From the sequence record KP869113: DNA of 64,000 nucleotides; one strand, 5' to 3'. Each line of letters starts with the position of its first letter. Position 1 is the first letter of the stretch. Of the stretch, positions 637 to 49,940 are shown one piece after another. Position numbers and translations under genes: made by a program. The stretch comes from Escherichia coli O157 typing phage 15. The notes below the pieces were generated by a model. It was not told the origin of the DNA, did not search any database, and saw only the letters and a program-made list of their open reading frames with translations.

Positions 637-715
637 TGGTGTTCCAAGACGGATTCGAACCGTCACTAATACAAGGTTTGAGCTTGCATCCTCTGCCAAT
701 TGGGATACTGGAACA
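637..715 (-). tRNA. tRNA-Leu (anticodon CAA), tentative; short variable arm
   Basis: Acceptor GTTCCAG/TTGGAAC, T-arm GACGGTTCGAATCCGTC, anticodon loop CTCAAAC; only 78-79 nt, no long extra arm. Confidence 0.5.
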
Positions 716-27745: not shown

Positions 27746-27838
27746 TGGAGGAAGATACCAGACTTGAACTGGTACACCGATTTCTCAGCTACTGGCAGTT
27801 TAGCAAACTGCTCCCTTACCTTTTAGGGTTAATCTTCC
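27746..27838 (-). tRNA. tRNA-Ser (anticodon GCU), long variable arm
   Basis: 93 nt; acceptor GGAAGAT/ATCTTCC, anticodon stem GCAGT/ACTGC loop TTGCTAA, T-arm CCAGTTCAAGTCTGG. Confidence 0.7.
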
Positions 27839-27840
27839 AT

Positions 27841-28575
27841 TTATTTCTGTAATGCGTTCTTCATTTCTGGTGTTGCAATAGTGTCAATTACACCAGTTTT
27901 ACAAGCATCATCAAACCAGTCTGGTAAGATACCTGCTAAGAACCCATTGATATTCGTTTTAAGGTACTCTGCAATAAGAGCAGCTTCTTCTTCAATCATC
28001 TGCACAACTTCATCTGCATAAGCTGTAATTTTTGAAATACCTTCATTAATCTTACTAACAGCTTGCTCAGCTAAATCAGAAATAGTATCAAGACCTTTGT
28101 CAATAGCATCTTGTAAGTCACTTAACACACCATTAACACTATCTAGTGCACTGTTAATCGTATCAATAGCTTTTTGACCATACTCTGTAGCAACACCCAT
28201 AATACCACTAAATGGTGTACAGCCAACTTGTTCACCTGCTGCACCCATAACATTAGAGTAACCTTTTGCTACCTGCATACGTGATGAAAACTCATCAATG
28301 GACTTTTGACCGTAATCTGTTAGTGTTTTGGTAGTTGATGTAGTGCTTGTCAGACTCGTGGTAAAGCTGTTAAGCAGAACTGTTGTAAGTCCAGCAGCAA
28401 CAATCTTATCCTTTACTGTAGGGTCTGATACAGAACTAATAGAGCTTACAAGTGATGTAGAGGCAGCTACGGTTCCACCGAGAACTGCTGCACCAGTAAT
28501 AAGGGGGTTAGAAAACCCTTTACCGGTTTTTAAGAGATTGAAAATCTCCTTACCTTGTTCTGTCATCTCTTTCAT
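27841..28575 (-). CDS. Hypothetical protein embedded in the tRNA array (about 244 aa)
   Basis: Track ORF 27841..28638 overlaps tRNA-Phe at its 5' end, so start moved to an internal ATG (28575 or 28566); Ser/Thr-rich, no recognised motif. Confidence 0.4.
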   Translation of the reverse strand: MKEMTEQGKEIFNLLKTGKGFSNPLITGAAVLGGTVAASTSLVSSISSVSDPTVKDKIVAAGLTTVLLNSFTTSLTSTTSTTKTLTDYGQKSIDEFSSRMQVAKGYSNVMGAAGEQVGCTPFSGIMGVATEYGQKAIDTINSALDSVNGVLSDLQDAIDKGLDTISDLAEQAVSKINEGISKITAYADEVVQMIEEEAALIAEYLKTNINGFLAGILPDWFDDACKTGVIDTIATPEMKNALQK

Positions 28576-28591
28576 TAAGCACCTTTGAAAT

Positions 28592-28667
28592 TGGTAGTCC
28601 AGTGGGATTTGAACCCTCTTCTCATGTTTTTCAGACACGCGCTTTAACCATATAAGCTACTTGGACT
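28592..28667 (-). tRNA. tRNA-Phe (anticodon GAA)
   Basis: T-arm GGGTTCAAATCCC, anticodon stem CGTGT/ACATG loop CTGAAAA. Confidence 0.6.
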
Positions 28668-28861: not shown

Positions 28862-28940
28862 TGGTACTCCATATCGGATTCGAACCGATACATAACACAG
28901 ATTTTAAGTCTGGCCTCTCTGCCAATTGGAGTAATGGAGC
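28862..28940 (-). tRNA. tRNA-Leu (anticodon UAA), tentative; short variable arm
   Basis: Acceptor GCTCCAT/ATGGAGT, T-arm ATCGGTTCGAATCCGAT, anticodon loop CTTAAAA; D-arm CCAATTGGCAGAG as in the other Leu-type tRNAs. Confidence 0.5.
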
Positions 28941-29026: not shown

Positions 29027-29362
29027 TTACTTTCTTAGTGGATGAATAAAGAATGCCAACATAACTCTTTCCCTTGAAAATGCTCTTTCTTCTGGGACAA
29101 CACTTTTAAGTTTCCACCCAACATAAATTCTCCAGTAAAATTGTTTACCAAAGATTTTGATTGACGGCACAAAAGCGAATAATCCCCAAGCATTACTGTT
29201 CCACATTAGGAGATAACCAGTCTGATTATCTTCAGGGTTAGAACTTACGTTGATATTACCTTTCCACTTAGTAACATCTTTTACATCTCTTCCTAATACA
29301 TGGTAAGAGAAGTTATAAGCTTTGTTTCTCCAGAGCCATCCAACTCTCTGCATGTAGACACC
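29027..29362 (-). CDS. Membrane protein, 5' part lost in N gap (same gene as window 1..299)
   Basis: ORF 29027..29353 is the C-terminal part; 29286-29362 is identical to window 1-77. Confidence 0.45.
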   Translation of the reverse strand, partial: GVYMQRVGWLWRNKAYNFSYHVLGRDVKDVTKWKGNINVSSNPEDNQTGYLLMWNSNAWGLFAFVPSIKIFGKQFYWRIYVGWKLKSVVPEERAFSRERVMLAFFIHPLRK

Positions 29363-30082
29363 NNNNNNNNNNNNNNNNNNNNNNNNNNNNNNNNNNNNNN
29401 NNNNNNNNNNNNNNNNNNNNNNNNNNNNNNNNNNNNNNNNNNNNNNNNNNNNNNNNNNNNNNNNNNNNNNNNNNNNNNNNNNNNNNNNNNNNNNNNNNNN
29501 NNNNNNNNNNNNNNNNNNNNNNNNNNNNNNNNNNNNNNNNNNNNNNNNNNNNNNNNNNNNNNNNNNNNNNNNNNNNNNNNNNNNNNNNNNNNNNNNNNNN
29601 NNNNNNNNNNNNNNNNNNNNNNNNNNNNNNNNNNNNNNNNNNNNNNNNNNNNNNNNNNNNNNNNNNNNNNNNNNNNNNNNNNNNNNNNNNNNNNNNNNNN
29701 NNNNNNNNNNNNNNNNNNNNNNNNNNNNNNNNNNNNNNNNNNNNNNNNNNNNNNNNNNNNNNNNNNNNNNNNNNNNNNNNNNNNNNNNNNNNNNNNNNNN
29801 NNNNNNNNNNNNNNNNNNNNNNNNNNNNNNNNNNNNNNNNNNNNNNNNNNNNNNNNNNNNNNNNNNNNNNNNNNNNNNNNNNNNNNNNNNNNNNNNNNNN
29901 NNNNNNNNNNNNNNNNNNNNNNNNNNNNNNNNNNNNNNNNNNNNNNNNNNNNNNNNNNNNNNNNNNNNNNNNNNNNNNNNNNNNNNNNNNNNNNNNNNNN
30001 NNNNNNNNNNNNNNNNNNNNNNNNNNNNNNNNNNNNNNNNNNNNNNNNNNNNNNNNNNNNNNNNNNNNNNNNNNNNNNNNNN
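29363..30082. other. Assembly gap (720 N); true content is probably represented by window 77-721
   Basis: N run; flanks 29286-29362 and 30083-30160 match window 1-77 and 722-797. Confidence 0.9.
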
Positions 30083-30151
30083 CTCACTAAAGGACTTGAA
30101 CCTTTTTCTTCATCTTGTAAGGGTGATGTTTTACCATATAAACTAAGCGAG
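30083..30151 (-). tRNA. tRNA-Val (UAC), 3'-truncated duplicate of 716..790
   Basis: Identical to window 722-790; 3' end lies in the gap. Confidence 0.5.
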
Positions 30152-30248
30152 TATGAAAGAGGTCTGAAGTTGTGCCGCTAACTCAACTTCGTGGAATTTG
30201 TTACGGTCTTCAGTTGACTCAAAGCGGTCTTTCACTTGACCTCTGAAT

Positions 30249-30654: not shown

Positions 30655-30912
30655 ATTAAATCTTTTTAGAGAACTTCTAAGAACCTGAGCAACAAGGTTC
30701 CACAACAAGCGACTAATAACCTTAGAAGCCCTCTAAAAAGACCTAAATAGGTCTTTGCATAGTCTTGTTTAATCCGGTGACTAGAACCTTTGGAGAGCTT
30801 GATATTATCTCTTCTCCGTGACACCTACTAGGTGTTTTATCAGTGTGTACAACAATACACGCGGTATACCAAAGCAACATCCGAATGAAGCTTGGCTTTA
30901 AATCTTATTAGG
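30655..30912 (-). ncRNA. Structured spacer in tRNA array (candidate stable small RNA)
   Basis: 258 nt with no tRNA and no ORF of 60 aa or more; four local hairpins (GAACC..GGTTC, GACCT-AAAT-AGGTC, CACCT-ACT-AGGTG, GTGTA..TACAC). Confidence 0.3.
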
Positions 30913-31000
30913 CGGTAAGTAAAGGAGTCGAACCCTCACCGTATCTCTACAGTGGCAACTGTTTTCAAGACAGTTTGGCTACCATTAGCCGCTACCTACC
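30913..31000 (-). tRNA. tRNA-Ser (anticodon UGA), long variable arm; CCA not encoded
   Basis: 88 nt; acceptor GGTAGGT/ACTTACC, anticodon stem ACTGT/ACAGT loop CTTGAAA, T-loop TTCGACT. Confidence 0.6.
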
Positions 31001-31432: not shown

Positions 31433-31503
31433 TGGCAGGGGTGTAGAGATTCGAACTCTAATCAAGAATTTTGGAGACTCTATTGCTGCCATAGCTCACC
31501 CCT
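31433..31503 (-). tRNA. tRNA-Trp (anticodon CCA), compact (71 nt)
   Basis: Acceptor AGGGGTG/CACCCCT, T-arm TAGAGTTCGAATCTCTA, anticodon stem AGAGT/ATTCT loop CTCCAAA, CCA encoded; short D-arm. Confidence 0.55.
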
Positions 31504-32823: not shown

Positions 32824-32911
32824 TGGTGTGCCGTGTAGGAGTCGAACCTACCGAGTCTCAATGACAAGGGATTTACAGTCCCCACCGCTACCATCTACGG
32901 GATAACGACAC
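32824..32911 (-). tRNA. tRNA-Tyr (anticodon GUA), long variable arm
   Basis: 88 nt; acceptor GTGTCGT/ACGGCAC, anticodon stem GGGGA/TCCCT loop CTGTAAA, T-arm GTAGGTTCGACTCCTAC, CCA. Confidence 0.7.
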
Positions 32912-33141: not shown

Positions 33142-33218
33142 TGGAGGCGGGTGCAGGAGTCGAACCTGCCGATACCATGCTAATGAGACATGTGAGACGC
33201 CCTTTCTCTATACCCGCA
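33142..33218 (-). tRNA. tRNA with anticodon CAU (Met / initiator / Ile2 candidate), non-canonical features
   Basis: T-arm GCAGGTTCGACTCCTGC, anticodon stem CATGT/GCATG loop CTCATTA, CCA encoded; position 1-72 apparently unpaired. Confidence 0.5.
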
Positions 33219-33638: not shown

Positions 33639-35054
33639 TTACCAGATATAACGGTCAATCATTACTGCTTTGAGCATTACACTGATTGGGTCAAACTTCT
33701 CACCACCAAGCAGAGCTTTTAAAGTGGCTGGAGAGAACCCTGATACCATTGCTACACCGTTATCCTTAACAGATACTTCGCAAGTACCATTACGGTTTGC
33801 TAAGTACCAGAATACCAGTTGTGGCATCTCATATCCAGCTTTTTTGTACTTACTCTGAATTGCTTCAAAGTTTGTACGACCGTTAGCTCCATCAACCTGA
33901 TTAAACTCCATATCGGAGAAGATGATAAGCTTACTTGGCATATCTTTCTGAGTCAAGTTGTTTCTTTTACCTGTTTCAAGAATGCGGTCAAAAGCTGCTT
34001 GTAAGTTAGTTGAGCCATATTCAACGTGTCGCATCACCTGACGATGACGGTTTCGTAAATCACCACTCAGTTCGATGAAGTGAGGGTTTGTTGAATAAAC
34101 CATCAACTCATTCTTAAAGCAACCTGTATTGCGTTCTGCTACATACAAGGCAAGTGATACACCAATATCCAGAGCAGTAATGGAGCCAAAATTCACCCAA
34201 GACATTGAACTTGATACATCAGACATACACAAGATGTTTTCACCTTCTGCCATCCAGTTTGGTAGTGCTTTCCACTGCTCATTAGCAACATCTGCATTAC
34301 CATACTTGACAGATTTAATCACATCGTATGGGTAAACAGCACCAGCGTTAATCTTAGTCTCACCTTTTGATAAGGACTCGATGTAAGCTTTGTAACGCTC
34401 TCCATCTTTACGGTTAAACAGTTTTTGGTAACGTGCAGCAGCAAGTGAAGGAATCTTACTGTAGTCAATCTTACCAAACTCATTAGCAGAGATTTTTTGC
34501 TCAACTGTATCAGATAGTGCAGACAACAGTGTGCGGTACTCTTTCTCACTCAAGTTGGCAAACTTGCAGAAACGTTTTACAAACTGCTTATGACGTGGTT
34601 TGACTCGTGGTAACCACTTAGCCGCCAAACCTGCTGTTGCAGGGTCTAGTAATGCTGCTTCTAAATGTTTGAAGGCATCTGTCTCGAAACGAGTACCTAC
34701 GAAGATTTTGAAGTCATCAAAACGACCAAGTTCTGCAATCTTATCCATAATGCGAAGAACCTGCGTAGACTCTAAAACTTTGTCTTCAATCGCTTGAAGT
34801 AAAACAGCTCTGAAGGCTTTACGCTCACCCATACCTTCTCGTACATCTCGCATATGCAGTAAAATACGAACTGCAACATCAACATCCTCACGCAAAGCTT
34901 TGTAGAACAGGTCTGGTAAGATTTCTACATTGCTACGGCTTGAACCAGCAGCTTTGTAAAAGTCTACAAGAGCAGACATTGATGAAGTATGGTTTACAGC
35001 ACCATTTTCAGTTCGACCTGCATGAAGGTGCGCATGTTTAAATAACTCGCTCAT
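33639..35054 (-). CDS. vWA-domain protein with MIDAS motif and about 270-aa helical N-terminal domain (possibly Ro60/TROVE-like)
   Basis: C-terminal half has DxSxS MIDAS motif (MSDVSSSM) followed by hydrophobic strand typical of vWA fold; N-terminal half is helix-rich; immediately upstream of the tRNA array on the same strand. Confidence 0.55.
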   Translation of the reverse strand: MSELFKHAHLHAGRTENGAVNHTSSMSALVDFYKAAGSSRSNVEILPDLFYKALREDVDVAVRILLHMRDVREGMGERKAFRAVLLQAIEDKVLESTQVLRIMDKIAELGRFDDFKIFVGTRFETDAFKHLEAALLDPATAGLAAKWLPRVKPRHKQFVKRFCKFANLSEKEYRTLLSALSDTVEQKISANEFGKIDYSKIPSLAAARYQKLFNRKDGERYKAYIESLSKGETKINAGAVYPYDVIKSVKYGNADVANEQWKALPNWMAEGENILCMSDVSSSMSWVNFGSITALDIGVSLALYVAERNTGCFKNELMVYSTNPHFIELSGDLRNRHRQVMRHVEYGSTNLQAAFDRILETGKRNNLTQKDMPSKLIIFSDMEFNQVDGANGRTNFEAIQSKYKKAGYEMPQLVFWYLANRNGTCEVSVKDNGVAMVSGFSPATLKALLGGEKFDPISVMLKAVMIDRYIW

Positions 35055-43699: not shown

Positions 43700-43965
43700 T
43701 TATCGGTTGTTCCAACCTCTGGGTCACCATCATATGTGAATAAAATATCTATCCTTCTTAACAACCTTCTTAATCTTACTCTCTATATATAGTTATATAG
43801 TACTATATAGTGTCTTAGTAACTATCTAGTGGTCTTAATAGCCCCTCTGTATAACCCTTCTAAATAGCCCTCTAAACACTCTTCTAACAAGCCTTCTTAA
43901 CAACCTATACAATCACCTTAACCATCTCTCTATACGCTCTTAGAAGCCTCTATACACCTCACCCC
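43700..43965. repeat. Pyrimidine-rich CTTAACAA-type repeat region; 43881-43957 identical to 898-974
   Basis: Same word family as 898-2733; 77-bp exact match. Confidence 0.6.
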
Positions 43966-44164
43966 AATAATGGTAGTGAGATTCCTCGTTTATGGCTTCT
44001 TTTACGGCATCTTTCCAGAAGTCATCAGTAGGGTTATAATCTGGTATCACCTGCTGAATCAGCATTTTGATAAGGTCAAAGGTATTATCTGTTCCACCGA
44101 TATCGAATTTTGCATCAAGTTGGTGGCAGCCATAAGCATTAACAGTTACGCGGATAGTTGACAT
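43940..44164 (-). CDS. Small early protein (74 aa)
   Basis: ORF immediately downstream of a promoter/hairpin/RBS cassette. Confidence 0.45.
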   Translation of the reverse strand: MSTIRVTVNAYGCHQLDAKFDIGGTDNTFDLIKMLIQQVIPDYNPTDDFWKDAVKEAINEESHYHYWGEVYRGF

Positions 44165-44230
44165 AATTTAGAATCTCCAGTTTAGGACTTTATTTAGTGG
44201 GGAAGGTCATTCCCTCCCCGTTGTTTAGTA
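44165..44230 (-). promoter_or_regulatory. Early-gene leader cassette, family 1
   Basis: Coding-strand consensus CAACGGGGAGGGAATGACCTTCCCCACTAA(G/A)TAAAGTCCTTAAACT(A/G)GAGATTC then ATG. Confidence 0.55.
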
Positions 44231-44232
44231 AT

Positions 44233-44496
44233 TTACTGCATATTGGCGTAGGTTGCAAGCCTTTTTTCGTTGTATTTTGTCAGAATTTCACAAGATAGAA
44301 CATCGTACATTGTAACCGCTTTGCTTTTGTCGAGGTCAAAAAAGCCAAATGCTTTACCATCTTTGAATCCGACAACTTCGTAAGATTCTTTAATGATTTC
44401 ACCATTGAACAAATCACTTTCGATACGGTGAAACAACGCTACGTCTTCTTTGTCAGTTGCAATCTGCAATAGTGTGGTTAATTCTACGTGTTCCAT
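44233..44496 (-). CDS. Small early protein (about 87 aa)
   Basis: Track ORF 44233..44601 trimmed to the ATG at 44496 that directly follows the cassette RBS. Confidence 0.45.
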   Translation of the reverse strand: MEHVELTTLLQIATDKEDVALFHRIESDLFNGEIIKESYEVVGFKDGKAFGFFDLDKSKAVTMYDVLSCEILTKYNEKRLATYANMQ

Positions 44497-44570
44497 TTTT
44501 GAATCTCCTAGTTTAAGGACTTTACTTAGTGGGAAGGTTAATCCCTCCCCGTTGATTGACAATTTACAGA
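44497..44570 (-). promoter_or_regulatory. Early-gene leader cassette, family 1
   Basis: Same consensus; upstream minus strand reads TTGACG-17 nt-TAAATT. Confidence 0.55.
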
Positions 44571-45094
44571 CTTTTGATTGTCTCGTCAATATCTTTTTCA
44601 ATATCTTTTAAAGTTTTTTCTAAGTTCTTGATATTGAAGGATAAGCCTTCACCGAGAGTCTTAGAATAACTGCTAGGACGTAAATCATAAAGGCCAATTT
44701 GTTCTACATTGGAGAGGTTGACCATTTCACCGCTTACATCATAAGCTATTGATACGGTGTTTTCAGGGGCTTTATAGAACTTGTTAAGATTCTTGATAGA
44801 ACGTTCATAAGCCATTTTATAACCATTTAAAAGGTCTTTAACGTGGTTGCGAACGTTTTTACACTCATCTAAGTAAATACCTAAGAATAGCGGTAACAGT
44901 TCTGCTACAGCTTGCATAAAGTGAGATACTACAACAGTAGAAACATTACGACGATGTATATAATAAGCCCCGTTTTCTGATTTAGTGATAGTTGCAAAGT
45001 GTACACCGTTGCAACGAAATTCGAAGGTATCTTTAACGGGTTTAGTCATAACGTTAGATGAGCGAATGTAGTTGATAGCTTGAAACTTGTTCAT
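44564..45094 (-). CDS. Hypothetical early protein (176 aa)
   Basis: ORF following cassette. Confidence 0.45.
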   Translation of the reverse strand: MNKFQAINYIRSSNVMTKPVKDTFEFRCNGVHFATITKSENGAYYIHRRNVSTVVVSHFMQAVAELLPLFLGIYLDECKNVRNHVKDLLNGYKMAYERSIKNLNKFYKAPENTVSIAYDVSGEMVNLSNVEQIGLYDLRPSSYSKTLGEGLSFNIKNLEKTLKDIEKDIDETIKSL

Positions 45095-45165
45095 TTTGAA
45101 TCTCCTAGTTTAAGGACTTTACTTAGTGGGGAAGGTCATTCCCTCCCCGTTGATTAGTACTATAC
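45095..45165 (-). promoter_or_regulatory. Early-gene leader cassette, family 1
   Basis: Same consensus; minus strand reads TTGCAA..TATAGT upstream of hairpin. Confidence 0.55.
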
Positions 45166-45315
45166 TTGTTTTGATTTGCCTTTGCAAGCAATTTTTTAAG
45201 TTTATCTATAAAGAATCTATTAAGTGAATCCCTTTTAGATAACCCCCTCGAACAAAGTTACCAATGTCAATGGGTATTGTCAACACTTTTTTAAAAGTTT
45301 TTTGTAAGTTATTGA

Positions 45316-45657
45316 TTAACTTATGAAGATTTTTTCAGGCTTTACATAGCTGATACGCTGACTTTTTAGCAGGTCATCCCAGATTAAAGCGGCAATATGT
45401 GCATAACCGGATTCACGTAAAAGCTTCATTGTTTTACTTCTCGTTTCAAAACGGCTTGCGTAGTATTCACTGTTCAAGGTCGTTTTATTCCCTTCGTTAT
45501 CTGTATGGATGATTTGCATCACTTGAAAGGGGCTTACACCCTCGCCTTTGTTCCACTGTTCAAAGTATTTTAGGCACTGCATAGGTGACATCTTATCACT
45601 TACTTGAGTTGACCAAGATGAGCCAGCTTTATCGGTAATTACGGTTACATAAGCCAT
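45316..45657 (-). CDS. Hypothetical early protein (113 aa)
   Basis: ORF following family-2 cassette. Confidence 0.45.
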   Translation of the reverse strand: MAYVTVITDKAGSSWSTQVSDKMSPMQCLKYFEQWNKGEGVSPFQVMQIIHTDNEGNKTTLNSEYYASRFETRSKTMKLLRESGYAHIAALIWDDLLKSQRISYVKPEKIFIS

Positions 45658-45742
45658 TTTAGAATCTCCAGTTTAGGATTGAGTGGTAAAGCTCTTTATC
45701 TGGGGCTTACTATACAGACTAATAAGCCCCATGTAAAGTACT
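45658..45742 (-). promoter_or_regulatory. Early-gene leader cassette, family 2
   Basis: Coding-strand palindrome GGGGCTTA-N13-TAAGCCCC, then AGATAAAGAGCTTTACCACTCAATCCTAAACTGGAGATTC and ATG. Confidence 0.55.
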
Positions 45743-45991
45743 TTAAGCGTCTTTATATTCTATCTCTGTGCACTCACCTTTTACTAGCTCAAAGGTCCAA
45801 ATAATTCGTTTATACTCAATCACTACTACAGTAACAAGGTCAGTCCTCTTCTCATTGGTTTTAAAGTCTATTGTGTGGGTATACTCATAACTAGTCTTAT
45901 CCTTAATTTCCCCGTAGCGTCTACACTCTTTATAGACTTCATCCATTAAGCCATTGCTAACCATGTTTTTTAGTTGAGTTTTAGTATACAT
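45743..45991 (-). CDS. Small early protein (82 aa)
   Basis: ORF following cassette. Confidence 0.45.
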   Translation of the reverse strand: MYTKTQLKNMVSNGLMDEVYKECRRYGEIKDKTSYEYTHTIDFKTNEKRTDLVTVVVIEYKRIIWTFELVKGECTEIEYKDA

Positions 45992-46084
45992 TTTTTGGAA
46001 TCTCCTAGTTTAAGGACTTTACTTAGTGGGGAAGGTCATTCCCTCCCCGTTGATTGATAATTTACAGACTTTTATCAGGCTTGT
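45992..46084 (-). promoter_or_regulatory. Early-gene leader cassette, family 1
   Basis: Consensus plus upstream TAGACA..TAAATT promoter-like hexamers. Confidence 0.55.
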
Positions 46085-46318
46085 CTAGTCTTTTTCAATG
46101 ATAATTTCATATTGACCATCGACACTGTCGAAATAGATTCCTTCGTCATCTTCTGTCTTAAAGTAACATTGTATATCATCACTGGCGGGGTAGTCTTGTC
46201 TTGCTATCTGGCAAACTTGAATAGCATTTTCTTTACTTCCTGTAAACTCTTCAAGCCCTTTAAAGTCACATGAATGGCCGTTACAAATGGAAAGGATGAG
46301 ATAAATGGTTGTAAGCAT
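46085..46318 (-). CDS. Small secreted protein (77 aa)
   Basis: N-terminal signal-like hydrophobic segment MLTTIYLILSICNG; several Cys. Confidence 0.4.
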   Translation of the reverse strand: MLTTIYLILSICNGHSCDFKGLEEFTGSKENAIQVCQIARQDYPASDDIQCYFKTEDDEGIYFDSVDGQYEIIIEKD

Positions 46319-46324
46319 GATTTA

Positions 46325-46370
46325 AGCCCTCTAAAAGCCCCTGTAAGGGGTTAATCAGTGTTTATAAGGT
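46325..46370 (-). terminator. Hairpin terminator after gene 46385..46927
   Basis: Minus-strand CCCCTTACAGGGG followed by CTTTTAG. Confidence 0.4.
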
Positions 46371-46384
46371 GAATGTATAGGTTT

Positions 46385-46927
46385 TTAGAAAAAGACCTTT
46401 AAATCACTCTCTACAATGTTTTCTGTCAGTGTATCCATGATGTCACAAAAAACCTGAATACTGTCGGATTGTTGGATACTTTTAGCAAGTAGCTCCAATG
46501 TTTCATCAAGATAATTTAAATTTGGGTTATCCAGTGAAGGGAGACAAAAAGGTGAATACATAGCGTTGAACTCTGTTGTATAGACCTTTTTAATCCAATT
46601 TACATCAAAGTACTCTGTAAAGCTTGCTATATTTGACATGTTATCACAAGAATAATCATCATTTAGCTCATCCTCTGGAATGTCAAGTTCTAAGATAACA
46701 ATATTTTGAGTTTTCATCTGAAAAGCTGCCGTGATAGTGGCATTTCCTAGAGCTTGCTGGATACCTTCCGATGCTATCTCTTCCTCATCATCACCATAGA
46801 GTTTATTTTCTGGGTACACGTAAAAATTGCCGTCCATATCCGAACAATTCCATACACCTGATGGTTTATCACCGTTATTAATCAGGTTGATAAAGTTTTC
46901 TTGAGTAGTACCGTGAAAGCATTTCAT
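46385..46927 (-). CDS. Hypothetical protein (180 aa) with N-terminal HGT motif (speculative ADP-ribosyltransferase or 2'-phosphotransferase-like)
   Basis: MKCFHGTT at N-terminus, aromatic-rich segment NFYVYPENKLYG, acidic central region; motif-level resemblance only. Confidence 0.4.
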   Translation of the reverse strand: MKCFHGTTQENFINLINNGDKPSGVWNCSDMDGNFYVYPENKLYGDDEEEIASEGIQQALGNATITAAFQMKTQNIVILELDIPEDELNDDYSCDNMSNIASFTEYFDVNWIKKVYTTEFNAMYSPFCLPSLDNPNLNYLDETLELLAKSIQQSDSIQVFCDIMDTLTENIVESDLKVFF

Positions 46928-47020
46928 TTTGAATCTCCTAGTTTAAGGATTTAGTGGTAAAGCTCTTTATCTGGGGCTTACTTTATCGAACTATAAGCCC
47001 CTTGTAAAGTACTTTATCAG
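46928..47020 (-). promoter_or_regulatory. Early-gene leader cassette, family 2
   Basis: GGGGCTTA..TAAGCCCC palindrome plus conserved RBS segment. Confidence 0.55.
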
Positions 47021-47218
47021 TTAATTTTTGACAACTTTTAAAACTGCAAGATAACCTAAGCAATAAGAATCACCGAAGAGAGTTCTACCCATGAAAGAAT
47101 CATCTTTGATATCCTTTGCAGTGACTGTTTTTTCTACGCCGTGGGAAAGAACTACATCACCAACTTTAATGTCTTTGATGTGCGTGGTTTCAATGGTTAA
47201 ACCGTTGATAATAGCCAT
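47021..47218 (-). CDS. Small early protein (65 aa)
   Basis: ORF following cassette. Confidence 0.4.
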   Translation of the reverse strand: MAIINGLTIETTHIKDIKVGDVVLSHGVEKTVTAKDIKDDSFMGRTLFGDSYCLGYLAVLKVVKN

Positions 47219-47319
47219 TTTGAATCTCCTAGTTTAAGGACTTTACTTAGTGGGGAAGGTCATTCCCTCCCCGTTGATGTGTAATTTAATCTATCTAAAA
47301 ATCAGTGTCAATAAAATTT
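47219..47319 (-). promoter_or_regulatory. Early-gene leader cassette, family 1
   Basis: Consensus hairpin plus RBS. Confidence 0.55.
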
Positions 47320-47724
47320 TTAGAGTTCTGCATAAATTGCGTCGCAGATGTCACGAAAGTCATGATTTGCCAAATTACGTTGTAACCAAGTGGCAAAGAA
47401 ATCAGCGATTGCAAAATTAGCATCATACTCAACAGATAGCCACACTTTCACGGCAAATCTAAACATTTTCAAGTCTAACTCTTTATTCATTACCTTAGAT
47501 TTGCCTAACATGTCGACCATTTCATATTGTGCACCGTCTAGCGTGATACCTGCTGCAACGTCAGCCAATGAGTTTTTTACGTTTTCAACGTCTAAGATAA
47601 CGCTTTGAATCTTTCCGATAATGTTGTGCAATGTTTCATCCGGTGCTGATGATGTAATAACATTGATTCGATTAACGGTTAAACGTGCTTTTAAGATTGA
47701 CAACTCACGATTATTAATAGCCAT
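47320..47724 (-). CDS. Hypothetical early protein (134 aa)
   Basis: ORF following cassette. Confidence 0.45.
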   Translation of the reverse strand: MAINNRELSILKARLTVNRINVITSSAPDETLHNIIGKIQSVILDVENVKNSLADVAAGITLDGAQYEMVDMLGKSKVMNKELDLKMFRFAVKVWLSVEYDANFAIADFFATWLQRNLANHDFRDICDAIYAEL

Positions 47725-47809
47725 TTTAGAATCTCCAATTTAGGATTGAGTGGTAAAGCTCTTTATCTGGGGCTTACTGTACAGACTAATAAGCCCCCTG
47801 TAAAGTACT
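47725..47809 (-). promoter_or_regulatory. Early-gene leader cassette, family 2
   Basis: Palindrome GGGGCTTA..TAAGCCCC; TTTACA-17 nt-TACAGT overlaps the palindrome. Confidence 0.55.
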
Positions 47810-48082
47810 TTATACTAAATGCAGTTTTTTACCTTTTACTATGATGTAACTTGATGTGCTATTGCTACATACATCCTGATAAATTCTGCGCAAACGTCCT
47901 TCATAGTATACTTTCCAGCTAGTTGGAATCTTTTTGCCGTATCCGGTAGCAGTTTTTTGGAGTCCTGCGACTTGCCAATCTAAGATATGTTGCTCAGCCT
48001 GTAAATCCTCAAAGTGCATCACACCGTCTACATAGTGACGTAGAGTGACATTTAAAGTGCGACCGTTGTTAGTAGTATACAT
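47810..48082 (-). CDS. Small early protein (90 aa)
   Basis: ORF following cassette. Confidence 0.45.
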   Translation of the reverse strand: MYTTNNGRTLNVTLRHYVDGVMHFEDLQAEQHILDWQVAGLQKTATGYGKKIPTSWKVYYEGRLRRIYQDVCSNSTSSYIIVKGKKLHLV

Positions 48083-48171
48083 TTTAGAATCTCCTAGTTT
48101 AAGGACTTTATTTAGTGGGGTGTTTATTGCCTCCCCGTTGATGTGTAATTTAATCTATCTAAAAATCAGTG
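48083..48171 (-). promoter_or_regulatory. Early-gene leader cassette, family 1 variant
   Basis: Variant hairpin GGGGAGGCAATAAACACCCC with conserved RBS segment. Confidence 0.5.
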
Positions 48172-48504
48172 TCAACAGTTTTGTTTTCGTTTGCTCAACT
48201 CTTGAACAATTACAGTATGATAGTCTTTTAAGTCACTAATATTTAAAGCATTTATCAGAGAATTATAATCATCGACTAATTGAAAATCATCTTTGAAAAT
48301 GTCGCTGATTTGATAAGTTCTCGCCCTGAATCTGAAGCTCATTTCTAACCGCTTTAATTGTTCATCGCTCAACCGCTCTAGAAAGCTCATTACAAGGCTA
48401 TTGCTAACCTGTTGTGTGATTGCCTTATTTGCTAGATTATAGGCTTTATATGCCTTATAGAGCGCGAAAATGGCAATGATTGCAGTGATACCAGTCATTA
48501 ACAT
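48172..48504 (-). CDS. Small membrane-anchored protein (110 aa)
   Basis: N-terminal hydrophobic helix MLMTGITAIIAIFALYKAY. Confidence 0.4.
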   Translation of the reverse strand: MLMTGITAIIAIFALYKAYKAYNLANKAITQQVSNSLVMSFLERLSDEQLKRLEMSFRFRARTYQISDIFKDDFQLVDDYNSLINALNISDLKDYHTVIVQELSKRKQNC

Positions 48505-48794
48505 GGTGCTTCCTCTTTACGTGATACTTTGCCATTTACAGTTATCTCATAAGAATCTAGTAAATCGCTTTTAGATTTGACAGGACTTTTAAGAGTATCA
48601 TCATAGATATTAACTTGCAATACAGGTTTTTTATACTCCCTGCAACTATTCCATAAGCAAATCACTACACGACGACCTTTTATTTTGCCGTGTAACCATT
48701 CCATAACATCATGGCTATTTCTTGATGTTTCAATGAAATCAATTTTGTTGAGTAATTTGCTTAGATTTTCACGAACTTTATTTGATAATTTCAT
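48498..48794 (-). CDS. Hypothetical early protein (98 aa)
   Basis: ORF following cassette. Confidence 0.45.
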   Translation of the reverse strand: MKLSNKVRENLSKLLNKIDFIETSRNSHDVMEWLHGKIKGRRVVICLWNSCREYKKPVLQVNIYDDTLKSPVKSKSDLLDSYEITVNGKVSRKEEAPC

Positions 48795-48882
48795 TTTTGA
48801 ATCTCCAGTTTAGGATTGAGTGGTAAAGCTCTTTATCTGGGGCTTAAGATACCAACTTTTAAGCCCCTTGTAAAGTACTTTA
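48795..48882 (-). promoter_or_regulatory. Early-gene leader cassette, family 2
   Basis: Palindrome plus RBS segment. Confidence 0.55.
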
Positions 48883-49173
48883 TCAGTTAATTTTCAGCTT
48901 TGCATAACCTCTCATTGTACGAATTGGAGATGTTAAGGCTACGCGTCTAATATATGCCTTTTTCGTGTATACATTTGTCTTTCCGATAGTGTTTACACAT
49001 GTAAAAAGATTTATTGGTGAATTTTTTAACTTCAACTGTTTATCAGCCTTCACACCCCATCTTACAGCAGATTGTTTTCCGTTGTCAACCACTTTCCCGC
49101 CTAACTTTTTCGCCATGATGCGAGCGTCATCACGAGTTTTTACAGGAATTACAACGTTTTTGATAGTAGCCAT
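48883..49173 (-). CDS. Small basic protein (96 aa)
   Basis: ORF following cassette. Confidence 0.45.
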   Translation of the reverse strand: MATIKNVVIPVKTRDDARIMAKKLGGKVVDNGKQSAVRWGVKADKQLKLKNSPINLFTCVNTIGKTNVYTKKAYIRRVALTSPIRTMRGYAKLKIN

Positions 49174-49261
49174 TTTTGAATCTCCAATTTAGGATTTAGT
49201 GGTAAAGCTCTTTATCTGGGGCTTACTTTATCGAACTATAAGCCCCTTGTAAAGTACTTTA
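49174..49261 (-). promoter_or_regulatory. Early-gene leader cassette, family 2
   Basis: Palindrome plus RBS segment. Confidence 0.55.
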
Positions 49262-49642
49262 TCAGTTAATTTTGAAGATTGTTACATAACCATCACTACC
49301 GATTATTTGAGACACTCCAGCTTTTTCTACTTGATAGCCCATATTTTCAAGATGATAAACAGCATCATCGTAACCATATGCGCCACCCTGATAACGTCTC
49401 TTATCGCATCTTATCAGGTTTTTACCACGTCCAGCAAGTGCATGTAAAATGGCTTTTTCACTTGAAAGAGTACCATCTAGCATTGTCGCCGTGTAATGGT
49501 TAATTTTATTCCCATTGATATCATACTTAAAATTAAACGAGTGAACAACAATAACGTTACCTTTAAAATTCTCATCAAGTGACTTCTCCAGTGCGTTGCG
49601 AAAGTTGTCTTTGTTGATGAATTTAGGTGCACGATATGCCAT
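49262..49642 (-). CDS. Hypothetical early protein (126 aa)
   Basis: ORF following cassette. Confidence 0.45.
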   Translation of the reverse strand: MAYRAPKFINKDNFRNALEKSLDENFKGNVIVVHSFNFKYDINGNKINHYTATMLDGTLSSEKAILHALAGRGKNLIRCDKRRYQGGAYGYDDAVYHLENMGYQVEKAGVSQIIGSDGYVTIFKIN

Positions 49643-49733
49643 TTTTGAATCTCCTAGTTTAAGGGTTGATTTGGTAAAGCTCTTTATCTGGGGCTTAAGA
49701 TATCAGCTTTTAAGCCCCTTGTAAAGTACTTTA
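49643..49733 (-). promoter_or_regulatory. Early-gene leader cassette, family 2
   Basis: Palindrome plus RBS segment. Confidence 0.55.
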
Positions 49734-49940
49734 TTAGGCATCGTAGTAATAAACTGCTGTCTGTCTTATGTACTTTCTTGTATTTCTTGTAAGGTAGCAA
49801 TTAGAGTTTATAGCTGTTTCTACATAGTTGCAATAGTCAGCCTCTGATATTCTAGACCATGCGCCACATACTTGCATGTAAAAACGTTTTACCTTTGTGT
49901 TAACGTTAGTTGTAACCATCAATTCACGACTATAAAGCAT
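49734..49940 (-). CDS. Small early protein (68 aa)
   Basis: First ORF of the small-gene array, preceded by a cassette-like RBS segment. Confidence 0.4.
   Translation of the reverse strand: MLYSRELMVTTNVNTKVKRFYMQVCGAWSRISEADYCNYVETAINSNCYLTRNTRKYIRQTAVYYYDA

Follow-up and report, generated by a model that had tools for sequence, protein, structure and literature searches.

The long extra arm is regarded by textbooks and the recent literature as a constant feature of bacterial tRNA-Leu. Three tRNA genes with leucine anticodons in Escherichia coli O157 typing phage 15 are only 77-79 nt long, and the question raised by the original prediction was whether these are unusual Leu tRNAs or tRNAs whose identity had been wrongly assigned. 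This was addressed in a 64,000-nt stretch of the phage DNA (record KP869113), termed the window below. The analysis upholds the first possibility through a leucine signature in the D arm and a Leu isotype model that ranks first, and does not sustain the second. The three genes very probably encode genuine, functional phage tRNA-Leu isoacceptors of a type I-like design, in which the extra arm is reduced to a loop of 5-7 nt.

Results

Three leucine-anticodon tRNAs have short variable regions

The minus strand of the window carries all 28 tRNA genes called by ARAGORN. The three Leu genes, the main array and the long-armed tRNAs that provide the contrast are as follows.

637-714, minus strand: tRNA-Leu(CAA), 78 nt including the encoded CCA (75 + CCA); ARAGORN, Rfam 44.0 bits
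28862-28940, minus strand: tRNA-Leu(UAA), 79 nt including the encoded CCA (76 + CCA); ARAGORN, Rfam 47.5 bits
30578-30654, minus strand: tRNA-Leu(UAG), 77 nt including the encoded CCA (74 + CCA); ARAGORN, Rfam 57.3 bits
27666..33473, minus strand: main phage tRNA array, 25 ARAGORN calls with a few ORFs interspersed; includes Leu(UAA) and Leu(UAG)
27746..27838, minus strand: tRNA-Ser(GCU), 93 nt, 21-nt extra arm; ARAGORN
30911..31000, minus strand: tRNA-Ser(UGA), 90 nt, 19-nt extra arm; ARAGORN
32824..32911, minus strand: tRNA-Tyr(GUA), 88 nt, 15-nt extra arm; ARAGORN

The predicted lengths of 77-79 nt were reproduced by ARAGORN and Rfam (78, 79 and 77 nt including CCA for CAA, UAA and UAG), and the predicted variable regions of 5-7 nt by the ARAGORN cloverleafs and an arm-by-arm parse (6, 7 and 5 nt). 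The Ser and Tyr tRNAs of the same array have the long arms ascribed to them (15-21 nt). The positions first given for the UAA and UAG genes were correct, and the CAA gene ends at 714, not 715. All three Leu tRNAs matched the Rfam tRNA model RF00005 over positions 1-71 of 71 and scored above its gathering threshold of 29 bits.

In each of the three, the acceptor stem is 7 bp long and is followed by U8 and A9, the D arm consists of a 3-bp stem and an 11-nt loop, the anticodon arm is normal, the T loop reads UUCGAAU and the discriminator is A73. The D loop is CAAUUGGCAGA in CAA and UAA and CAACUGGUAGA in UAG. The variable regions are AUUAGU in CAA, GUUAUGU in UAA and UCAGU in UAG, lengths that assume a standard 5-bp anticodon stem, and the last of these fits the consensus NCAGU of the short-armed class described below. 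Leu(CAA) has a G1-C72 pair and the D stem UCC/GGA. Leu(UAA) has the acceptor sequence GCUCCAU with G1.U72, the D stem CUC/GAG, a C27.U43 mismatch in the anticodon stem, the anticodon loop CUUAAAA and the T arm AUCGG-UUCGAAU-CCGAU. Leu(UAG) also has G1.U72, together with the D stem GCC/GGC and a U50.U64 mismatch in the T stem.

Type II tRNAs are defined by a stem-loop variable arm of more than 10 nt, and none of the three Leu tRNAs has one. An alternative fold with a long variable arm had been raised as the observation that would overturn the prediction; neither the ARAGORN cloverleafs nor RNAfold gave such a fold for any of the three. The 74-76 nt that precede CCA leave no room for a long arm. 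Because the variable region is 5-7 nt and no long-arm fold exists, the three Leu tRNAs are not type II. The RNAfold minimum-free-energy structure of Leu(UAA) was not a cloverleaf and the z-scores were low (-0.3 to -2.2), figures that come from folding single sequences and so are weak evidence. The Leu(UAA) gene was 100% identical in >200 Felixounavirus records that annotate it as tRNA-Leu, and its identity reached ≥99% in 215 of the 254 phage records that matched it, the genomes themselves differing by 2-15%.

The genes belong to a Felix O1-like tRNA array

The tRNA region is 94-98% identical to those of Felix O1-like phages (wV8, TH10, GE_vB_7A and the O157 typing phages), and by this similarity the source phage is Felix O1-like, a Felixounavirus. 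The gene order of the main array is the same as in phage Sf14. Three ARAGORN calls on the minus strand fell below the Rfam threshold: Trp(CCA) at 31433-31503 (71 nt), Tyr(GUA) at 32824-32911 and Met(CAU) at 33142-33218. Two genes, the Tyr tRNA among them, are labelled 'pseudo' in the publication on the Felix O1 genome, which lists the tRNAs with no comment on their shape (PMC3185647). A 265-aa DUF7217 ORF (27841-28638, minus strand) lies inside the array between Ser(GCU) and Phe, and its Sf14 counterpart is annotated as a putative membrane protein. Directly adjoining the array is a 471-aa ORF (33639-35054, minus strand) with DUF7788 and DUF2828 domains, the Sf14 orthologue of which is annotated 'RNA-binding protein'. 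The protein might act on the tRNAs.

Leu(CAA) stands 27 kb from the array in the window, and the sequence around it contains repeats that bear on this position. Five repeat pairs were found in the window, each exactly 77 nt long and 100% identical.

1-77 and 29286-29362: 77-nt repeat pair
721-797 and 30083-30159: 77-nt repeat pair
898-974 and 43882-43958: 77-nt repeat pair
1349-1425 and 1526-1602: 77-nt repeat pair
1831-1907 and 2008-2084: 77-nt repeat pair

Arg(ACG), Leu(CAA) and Val(UAC) lie in segment 1-797, which is bounded by the same 77-mers as positions 29286-30159 of the main array. The path through the main array has a second Val(UAC), followed by 720 nt (29363-30082) that hold neither Leu(CAA) nor Arg(ACG). 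Sf14 has a Val-Leu(CAA)-Arg trio at exactly that place. Segments 1-797 and 29286-30159 look like alternative paths of a k=77 assembly graph that were written consecutively, so the distance of 27 kb between Leu(CAA) and the array is probably not biological. Transposition of the tRNA trio was considered as a biological account of the Leu(CAA) location and rejected, since the 77-mer repeats favor an assembly-graph artefact. The first ~2.1 kb of the window may be non-collinear with the real genome. Two ORFs span the 720-nt stretch (29293-30087, minus strand; 29300-30181, plus strand), and the 264-aa minus-strand ORF gave no Pfam match. The stretch could be a mobile insertion, for example a homing-endonuclease-like gene, that displaces two tRNA genes in one phage variant. 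Elsewhere in the window, positions 44100-49750 hold a direct-repeat family of ~60-120 nt with many copies at 84-100% identity.

The leucine identity set is intact

Leucine identity in E. coli resides in A73, A14 (as U8-A14), A15-U48, G18G19 with A20a, and U54-A58, with A73 as the major determinant for LeuRS (PMC9976931, PMC6614811). The anticodon and the long arm are outside the identity set, and arm-truncated tRNALeu is still active (PMC9976931, PMC6614811). SerRS requires the long arm (PMC9976931). U8, A14, A15, G18G19, A20a and a variable region ending in U are present in all three phage Leu tRNAs. The bases of the A15-U48 Levitt pair, of U8-A14 and of U54-A58 are in place and would be expected to form these tertiary pairs.

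The E. coli K-12 tRNA-Leu genes (leuVPQ, leuT, leuW, leuU, leuX and leuZ) were used for comparison. In all of them the D stem is 3 bp long, the 11-nt D loop has the form RAAYYGGUAGA, A73 is present and the 12-15 nt arm ends in U48; all tRNA-Leu of the E. coli host are type II. The phage tRNAs have the D loop CAAYTGGYAGA, A73 and U48, which matches the E. coli D-arm architecture. The D arm had been described as unusual, a description that does not hold, since all five tRNA-Leu species of E. coli have this D arm. The D-arm string quoted with that description is exact for CAA and UAG and wrong for UAA, which reads CUCCAAUUGGCAGAGAG, so the core common to all three is CCAAYTGGYAGAG. The three tRNAs descend from, or mimic, the Leu family.

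Whole-sequence identity, computed without the anticodon and variable region, failed to separate isotypes because everything was ~0.7 identical, and it was superseded by a D-arm signature test. The closest non-Leu tRNA had an identity of ≤0.73 to the three Leu tRNAs, and no tRNA of the window or host set was >75% identical to them. A blastn search with Leu(UAA) against all complete E. coli genomes returned nothing, even at E=10. The signature scored was a 3-bp D stem, an N-AA-N(1-2)-GG-N-A-N-A loop and A73, and the sample was 1,066 tRNAs from 106 viral tRNA-array loci. The signature was present in 60 of 88 Leu tRNAs (31/44 long-armed and 29/44 short-armed) versus 0 of 978 others.

Scores from the tRNAscan-SE 2.0 isotype models are published for 26 tRNAs of Sf14, a Mooglevirus (PMC12482277). 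Sf14 Leu(CAA) is identical to that of the window, and one-base differences are found in Leu(UAA) (C32U) and Leu(UAG) (U20A). The Leu model scored 49.1 versus 36.1 for Lys with Leu(CAA), 60.2 versus 54.2 for Lys with Leu(UAA) and 67.4 versus 65.7 for Ile2 with Leu(UAG), the last a thin margin (PMC12482277). Assignment of the tRNAs to another amino acid, envisaged as a way in which the prediction might fail, did not occur: Leu ranked first for all three near-identical orthologues in these published scores. The top isotype model was at odds with the anticodon in 14 of the 26 Sf14 tRNAs (PMC12482277). The Sf14 paper lists the Leu tRNAs as 'consistent' and never mentions the arm (PMC12482277).

The G3.U70 pair that is the determinant for AlaRS is absent from the three Leu tRNAs. 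The remaining E. coli synthetases are known to read anticodons, and the anticodons they read are absent from these tRNAs. Given the lack of G3.U70 and of a long arm, and the reliance of the other synthetases on anticodons, no other synthetase is a plausible charger.

The codons involved behave as leucine codons

The coding meaning of TTA, TTG and CTA was assessed in seven orthologous proteins of the window and Sf14 (2,174 residues, 88% identity). Among 88 TTA/TTG/CTA positions, Sf14 has the same codon at 30, another Leu codon at 50 and an I, M, V or Q codon at 8. More than half of the Leu-to-Leu switches (26/50) go to CTT, CTC or CTG. The substitution pattern is the same as that of CTN codons. 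The codons read by the three tRNAs behave as Leu codons.

Short-armed tRNA-Leu is a widespread class

To see how general the short-armed type is, two samples were taken from IMG/VR, bacterial genomes were scanned and cultured phages were searched. Sample 1 was drawn with a pattern of Leu D loop plus T loop that is open to either arm length. It yielded 132 Leu tRNAs, 17 of them short-armed, on contigs of 32-68% GC. Sample 2 was chosen independently of leucine and required two adjacent canonical T loops. It yielded 88 Leu tRNAs, 44 short-armed and 44 long-armed, along with 81 Ser and 45 Tyr tRNAs that included no short-armed member. The raw prevalence of 50% was dropped because the sample 2 pattern favors the short class, and a range of 20-37% was used instead. 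This range is the short-armed fraction after removal of the Leu tRNAs able to trigger the match (37% or 25/67 in sample 2, 20% or 11/55 in sample 1). Of the 215 distinct viral Leu sequences in total, 59 have the short arm, and short- and long-armed Leu tRNAs occur together in 19 loci.

A blastn search of cultured phages with Leu(UAG) returned relatives 75-85% identical and 75-78 nt long, all annotated tRNA-Leu. The hosts of these phages are Mycobacterium (Bxz1-like phages), Streptomyces, Gordonia, Klebsiella, Cronobacter, Pseudomonas, Bacillus and Enterococcus. The scan of bacterial genomes, with one genome per species, found the short-armed Leu pattern in at least 120 loci. Among the matches listed, all 122 of the 122 pattern-matching bacterial tRNAs have a Leu anticodon and a short arm; 34 are alone in their 8-kb locus and the others are in arrays of up to 34 tRNAs. 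The lone genes among these listed matches are mostly from Actinomycetota, where they lie in chromosomes of genera such as Pseudonocardia, Nocardia, Corynebacterium and Mycolicibacterium (loci L242-L244, L253, L257, L260-L262, L270, L278, L280 and L281). The lone actinomycete genes may be related to the type I tRNALeu of Streptomyces coelicolor, in which case the latter would be anything but a unique example. Viral and bacterial arrays with short-armed Leu tRNAs (L055, L056, L268 and others) also hold tRNAs with stop-codon anticodons, called SeC(tca) or Pyl(cta) by ARAGORN, that are possible suppressor tRNAs.

The short-armed tRNAs share features beyond the missing arm. In three sets, C13 was found in 27/34, 9/16 and 158/182 short-armed Leu tRNAs, compared with 0/33, 0/104 and 1/18 of those with a long arm. 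At position 9 the short-armed class often has A and the long-armed tRNAs have G. The class is defined here by C13 (often with A9), a Leu D loop, a variable region of 4-7 nt ending in U48, and A73. All three Leu tRNAs of the window have A9 and C13 and fit this class. In 64 distinct viral short-armed Leu tRNAs, 94-99% of stem pairs were canonical, compared with 50-66% when the partners were shuffled, and 3-6 pair types were seen at the majority of stem positions. ARAGORN selects for pairing, and the diversity of pair types is therefore the informative part of this covariation. As judged from these surveys, the three genes are members of a large class of short-armed tRNA-Leu that has spread horizontally and occurs both in phages and in bacterial tRNA arrays. 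The short-armed type is widespread and not confined to this genome.

E. coli LeuRS and short-armed tRNA-Leu

Published data bear on both sides of the question of whether E. coli LeuRS can use these tRNAs. A single bacterial type I tRNALeu, the CAA species of S. coelicolor, has been assayed with E. coli LeuRS; it was not charged, and the authors of that study state that the enzyme 'only charges type II' (PMC6614811). Crystal structures have the C-terminal domain of E. coli LeuRS touching arm nucleotides 47f-47i (PMC6614811), and its leucine-specific domain favors large arm loops (PMC3643597). Together, the failure to charge the S. coelicolor tRNA, the contact at 47f-47i and the preference for large loops mean that charging of the phage tRNAs may be less efficient.

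A short-armed tRNA-Leu from another coliphage appears to be used in vivo. In code-swapped E. coli strains, a 'bacteriophage-derived (GenBank ID MF402939.1) tRNALeu(CGA)' 'decodes TCG codons as leucine' (PMC13596443). Accession MF402939.1 is the T5-like phage OSYSP, and an ARAGORN analysis of its whole genome found exactly two tRNAs with Leu anticodons, both short-armed. Each is 77 nt long and has GUUUU as its variable region, A73, and a D arm made up of a 3-bp stem and the loop GAAUUGGCAUA. Since OSYSP has only short-armed Leu tRNAs, the engineered tRNALeu(CGA) must be short-armed, its arm length being deduced from the phage genome. The OSYSP tRNAs form a sub-type distinct from that of the window, with G13, GAAUUGGCAUA and GUUUU.

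The T5 and T4 Leu tRNAs are classical and measure 85 and 87 nt. T5 and OSYSP share an array slot (Ser ... Leu(UAG)-Ala) that is occupied by a long-armed 85-nt Leu(UAG) in T5 (locus L128, 9625-9709) versus an unrelated short-armed 77-nt Leu(UAG) in OSYSP (locus L236, 3693-3769). This arrangement suggests that one tRNA gene was replaced by another and that the arm was not deleted in place. A further OSYSP sequence on the minus strand near 108102 (reverse-complement coordinate) has a Leu-type D arm (GCCGGAATTGGTAGACGGGA...) and received no ARAGORN call. It is possibly a tRNA-like stable RNA of the kind annotated in T5.

Discussion

The findings fit a scheme in which the three Leu tRNAs would be transcribed together with the phage tRNA array. 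The CCA end is encoded in the genes themselves, and the sequences form a cloverleaf whose D arm is leucine-specific (3-bp stem, 11-nt loop). By analogy with the published identity set, LeuRS of the Salmonella or E. coli host would charge them with leucine, and the tRNAs would depend on this enzyme. [quoted passage not shown] The in vivo activity of the short-armed OSYSP tRNA-Leu lends support to such charging. Leu(UAA) would decode UUA and UUG, Leu(CAA) UUG, and Leu(UAG) CUA and CUG, possibly all CUN, and this decoding capacity would be supplied to an AT-rich phage. Over-use of TTA and CTA relative to the host is described in the publications on Sf14 and Felix O1 (PMC12482277, PMC3185647). The arm would be dispensable because bacterial LeuRS does not use it. 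Bacterial TyrRS binds and needs the long arm. Since SerRS needs it as well, only the Leu family would be expected to lose the arm.

Two explanations would deny these genes a role as leucine tRNAs. Their identity could be wrong, or a synthetase other than LeuRS could charge them and make the decoding of Leu codons ambiguous. The arm that annotation models expect is absent, the Ile2 and Lys models come close to Leu for Leu(UAG) (PMC12482277), and identity to other tRNAs of the window (up to 0.73) is no lower than identity to Leu tRNAs. A misassignment is nevertheless extremely improbable. The Leu model ranks first for all three Sf14 orthologues, and in a human case of anticodon shift the donor model won by 98.4 to 2.6 bits (PMC8450103). 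The D-arm signature with A73 does not occur in any of the 978 non-Leu viral tRNAs, and neither the window nor the host set contains a tRNA that exceeds 75% identity. TTA, TTG and CTA behave as Leu codons, and the tRNAs have no G3.U70 and no Ser-type arm. The genes could instead be decaying or serve outside translation, as relics, processing signals or decoys for host tRNA-targeting enzymes. Weak tRNAs do occur in Felix O1-group arrays (Tyr, Trp and one Met below the Rfam threshold, and two called 'pseudo' (PMC3185647)), and stem mismatches in UAA and UAG go with poor folding z-scores. Decay or a role outside translation is very unlikely, however, for genes that are nearly invariant in >250 genomes differing by 2-15% elsewhere and that retain CCA, A73 and all tertiary-interaction bases. 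The short-armed class shows strong compensatory covariation, phages that infect Actinobacteria, Firmicutes and Proteobacteria all retain this design, and the OSYSP member, its short arm deduced from the genome, works in E. coli translation (PMC13596443).

The other alternative accepts the tRNAs as functional and treats the short arm as an adaptation instead of a tolerated loss, one that hides them from enzymes of the host, of rival phages or of the phage itself that recognize type II tRNAs, or prevents mis-serylation by SerRS, for which the arm is the chief determinant. In favor of this view, the class is old, has a coherent C13/A9 signature and accounts for 20-37% of phage Leu tRNAs, and its members often sit beside long-armed Leu tRNAs in one array (19 loci). 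The exchange of long- and short-armed Leu(UAG) in the same array slot of T5 and OSYSP points the same way, and phage tRNAs have been proposed to evade tRNA nucleases (PMC10264068, PMC13596443). On the other side, no bacterial nuclease specific for the long arm was identified in this analysis, and a neutral account is sufficient because LeuRS does not need the arm. Adaptation is accordingly considered unlikely. A broader proposal, to which a similarly small chance is given, is that short-armed tRNA-Leu is a distinct, ancient and mobile lineage (C13/A9) that crosses phyla and persists because armlessness protects it from long-arm-recognizing enzymes of defence systems or competitors, or from mischarging by SerRS. 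If this were true, the independence of LeuRS from the arm would be exploited in nature on a large scale, with Leu as the only long-armed family free to take this route, and the claim that E. coli LeuRS charges type II tRNALeu alone would need revision.

The preferred reading, that the three genes are functional tRNA-Leu isoacceptors with the arm reduced to a short loop, has several consequences. A classic group of enterobacterial phages (Felix O1, wV8, Sf14 and >250 sequenced relatives) carries three armless Leu tRNAs from which no E. coli LeuRS determinant is missing. The surveys suggest that this design is also common in bacterial tRNA arrays and in phages whose hosts span many phyla. The class offers natural arm-deletion experiments on LeuRS recognition. 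It matters for annotation, as isotype models trained on long-armed Leu tRNAs give thin margins here. It also matters for engineering, where viral Leu tRNAs already rewrite the E. coli code and armlessness should be considered in design. The question it raises is whether loss of the arm is neutral or a counter-defence.

Comparison with known systems

Type I tRNALeu is already known from animal mitochondria and from S. coelicolor, and the phage genes are annotated in hundreds of records. The S. coelicolor exception was reported as a first (PMC6614811). In the literature searched, no published description was found of armless Leu tRNAs in the Felix O1 group, in phages or in tRNA arrays. The short-armed phage type thus seems not yet described, and the breadth of short-armed tRNA-Leu is possibly under-appreciated.

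The type II tRNA-Leu of E. coli, T4 and T5 are the same as those of the window in D-arm architecture (NAAYYGGYAGA), A73, U48, T loop and anticodons. They differ in length (85-87 nt), in their stem-loop arm of 12-15 nt, and in having G9 and G or A at position 13. Animal mitochondrial tRNA-Leu resembles the phage tRNAs in its short variable loop and in the use of A73 and A14 as determinants (PMC9976931), but it is organellar, has a dedicated LeuRS and has a degenerate tRNA core. The OSYSP tRNA-Leu is closer, being a 77-nt coliphage tRNA with a 5-nt loop, a 3-bp D stem, A73 and an encoded CCA. It differs from the tRNAs of the window in G13, GAAUUGGCAUA, GUUUU and unrelated stems, and its short arm goes unmentioned in the publications consulted.

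The S. coelicolor type I tRNALeu(CAA) has a Leu anticodon and a short variable loop like the phage tRNAs (5-nt ACAGC compared with NCAGU in the class); it coexists with long-armed tRNALeu and a single LeuRS, and U8-A14 matters for its recognition (PMC6614811). The phage tRNAs are type I in the same sense, with a short loop alongside the type II tRNALeu of the host. The S. coelicolor tRNA differs in that it is chromosomal and actinomycete, is served by a LeuRS with a specialized leucine-specific domain, and does not use A73 as a determinant (PMC6614811). The phage tRNAs, in contrast, have enterobacterial hosts and retain the whole of the E. coli identity set, with A73 and U48 among its elements.
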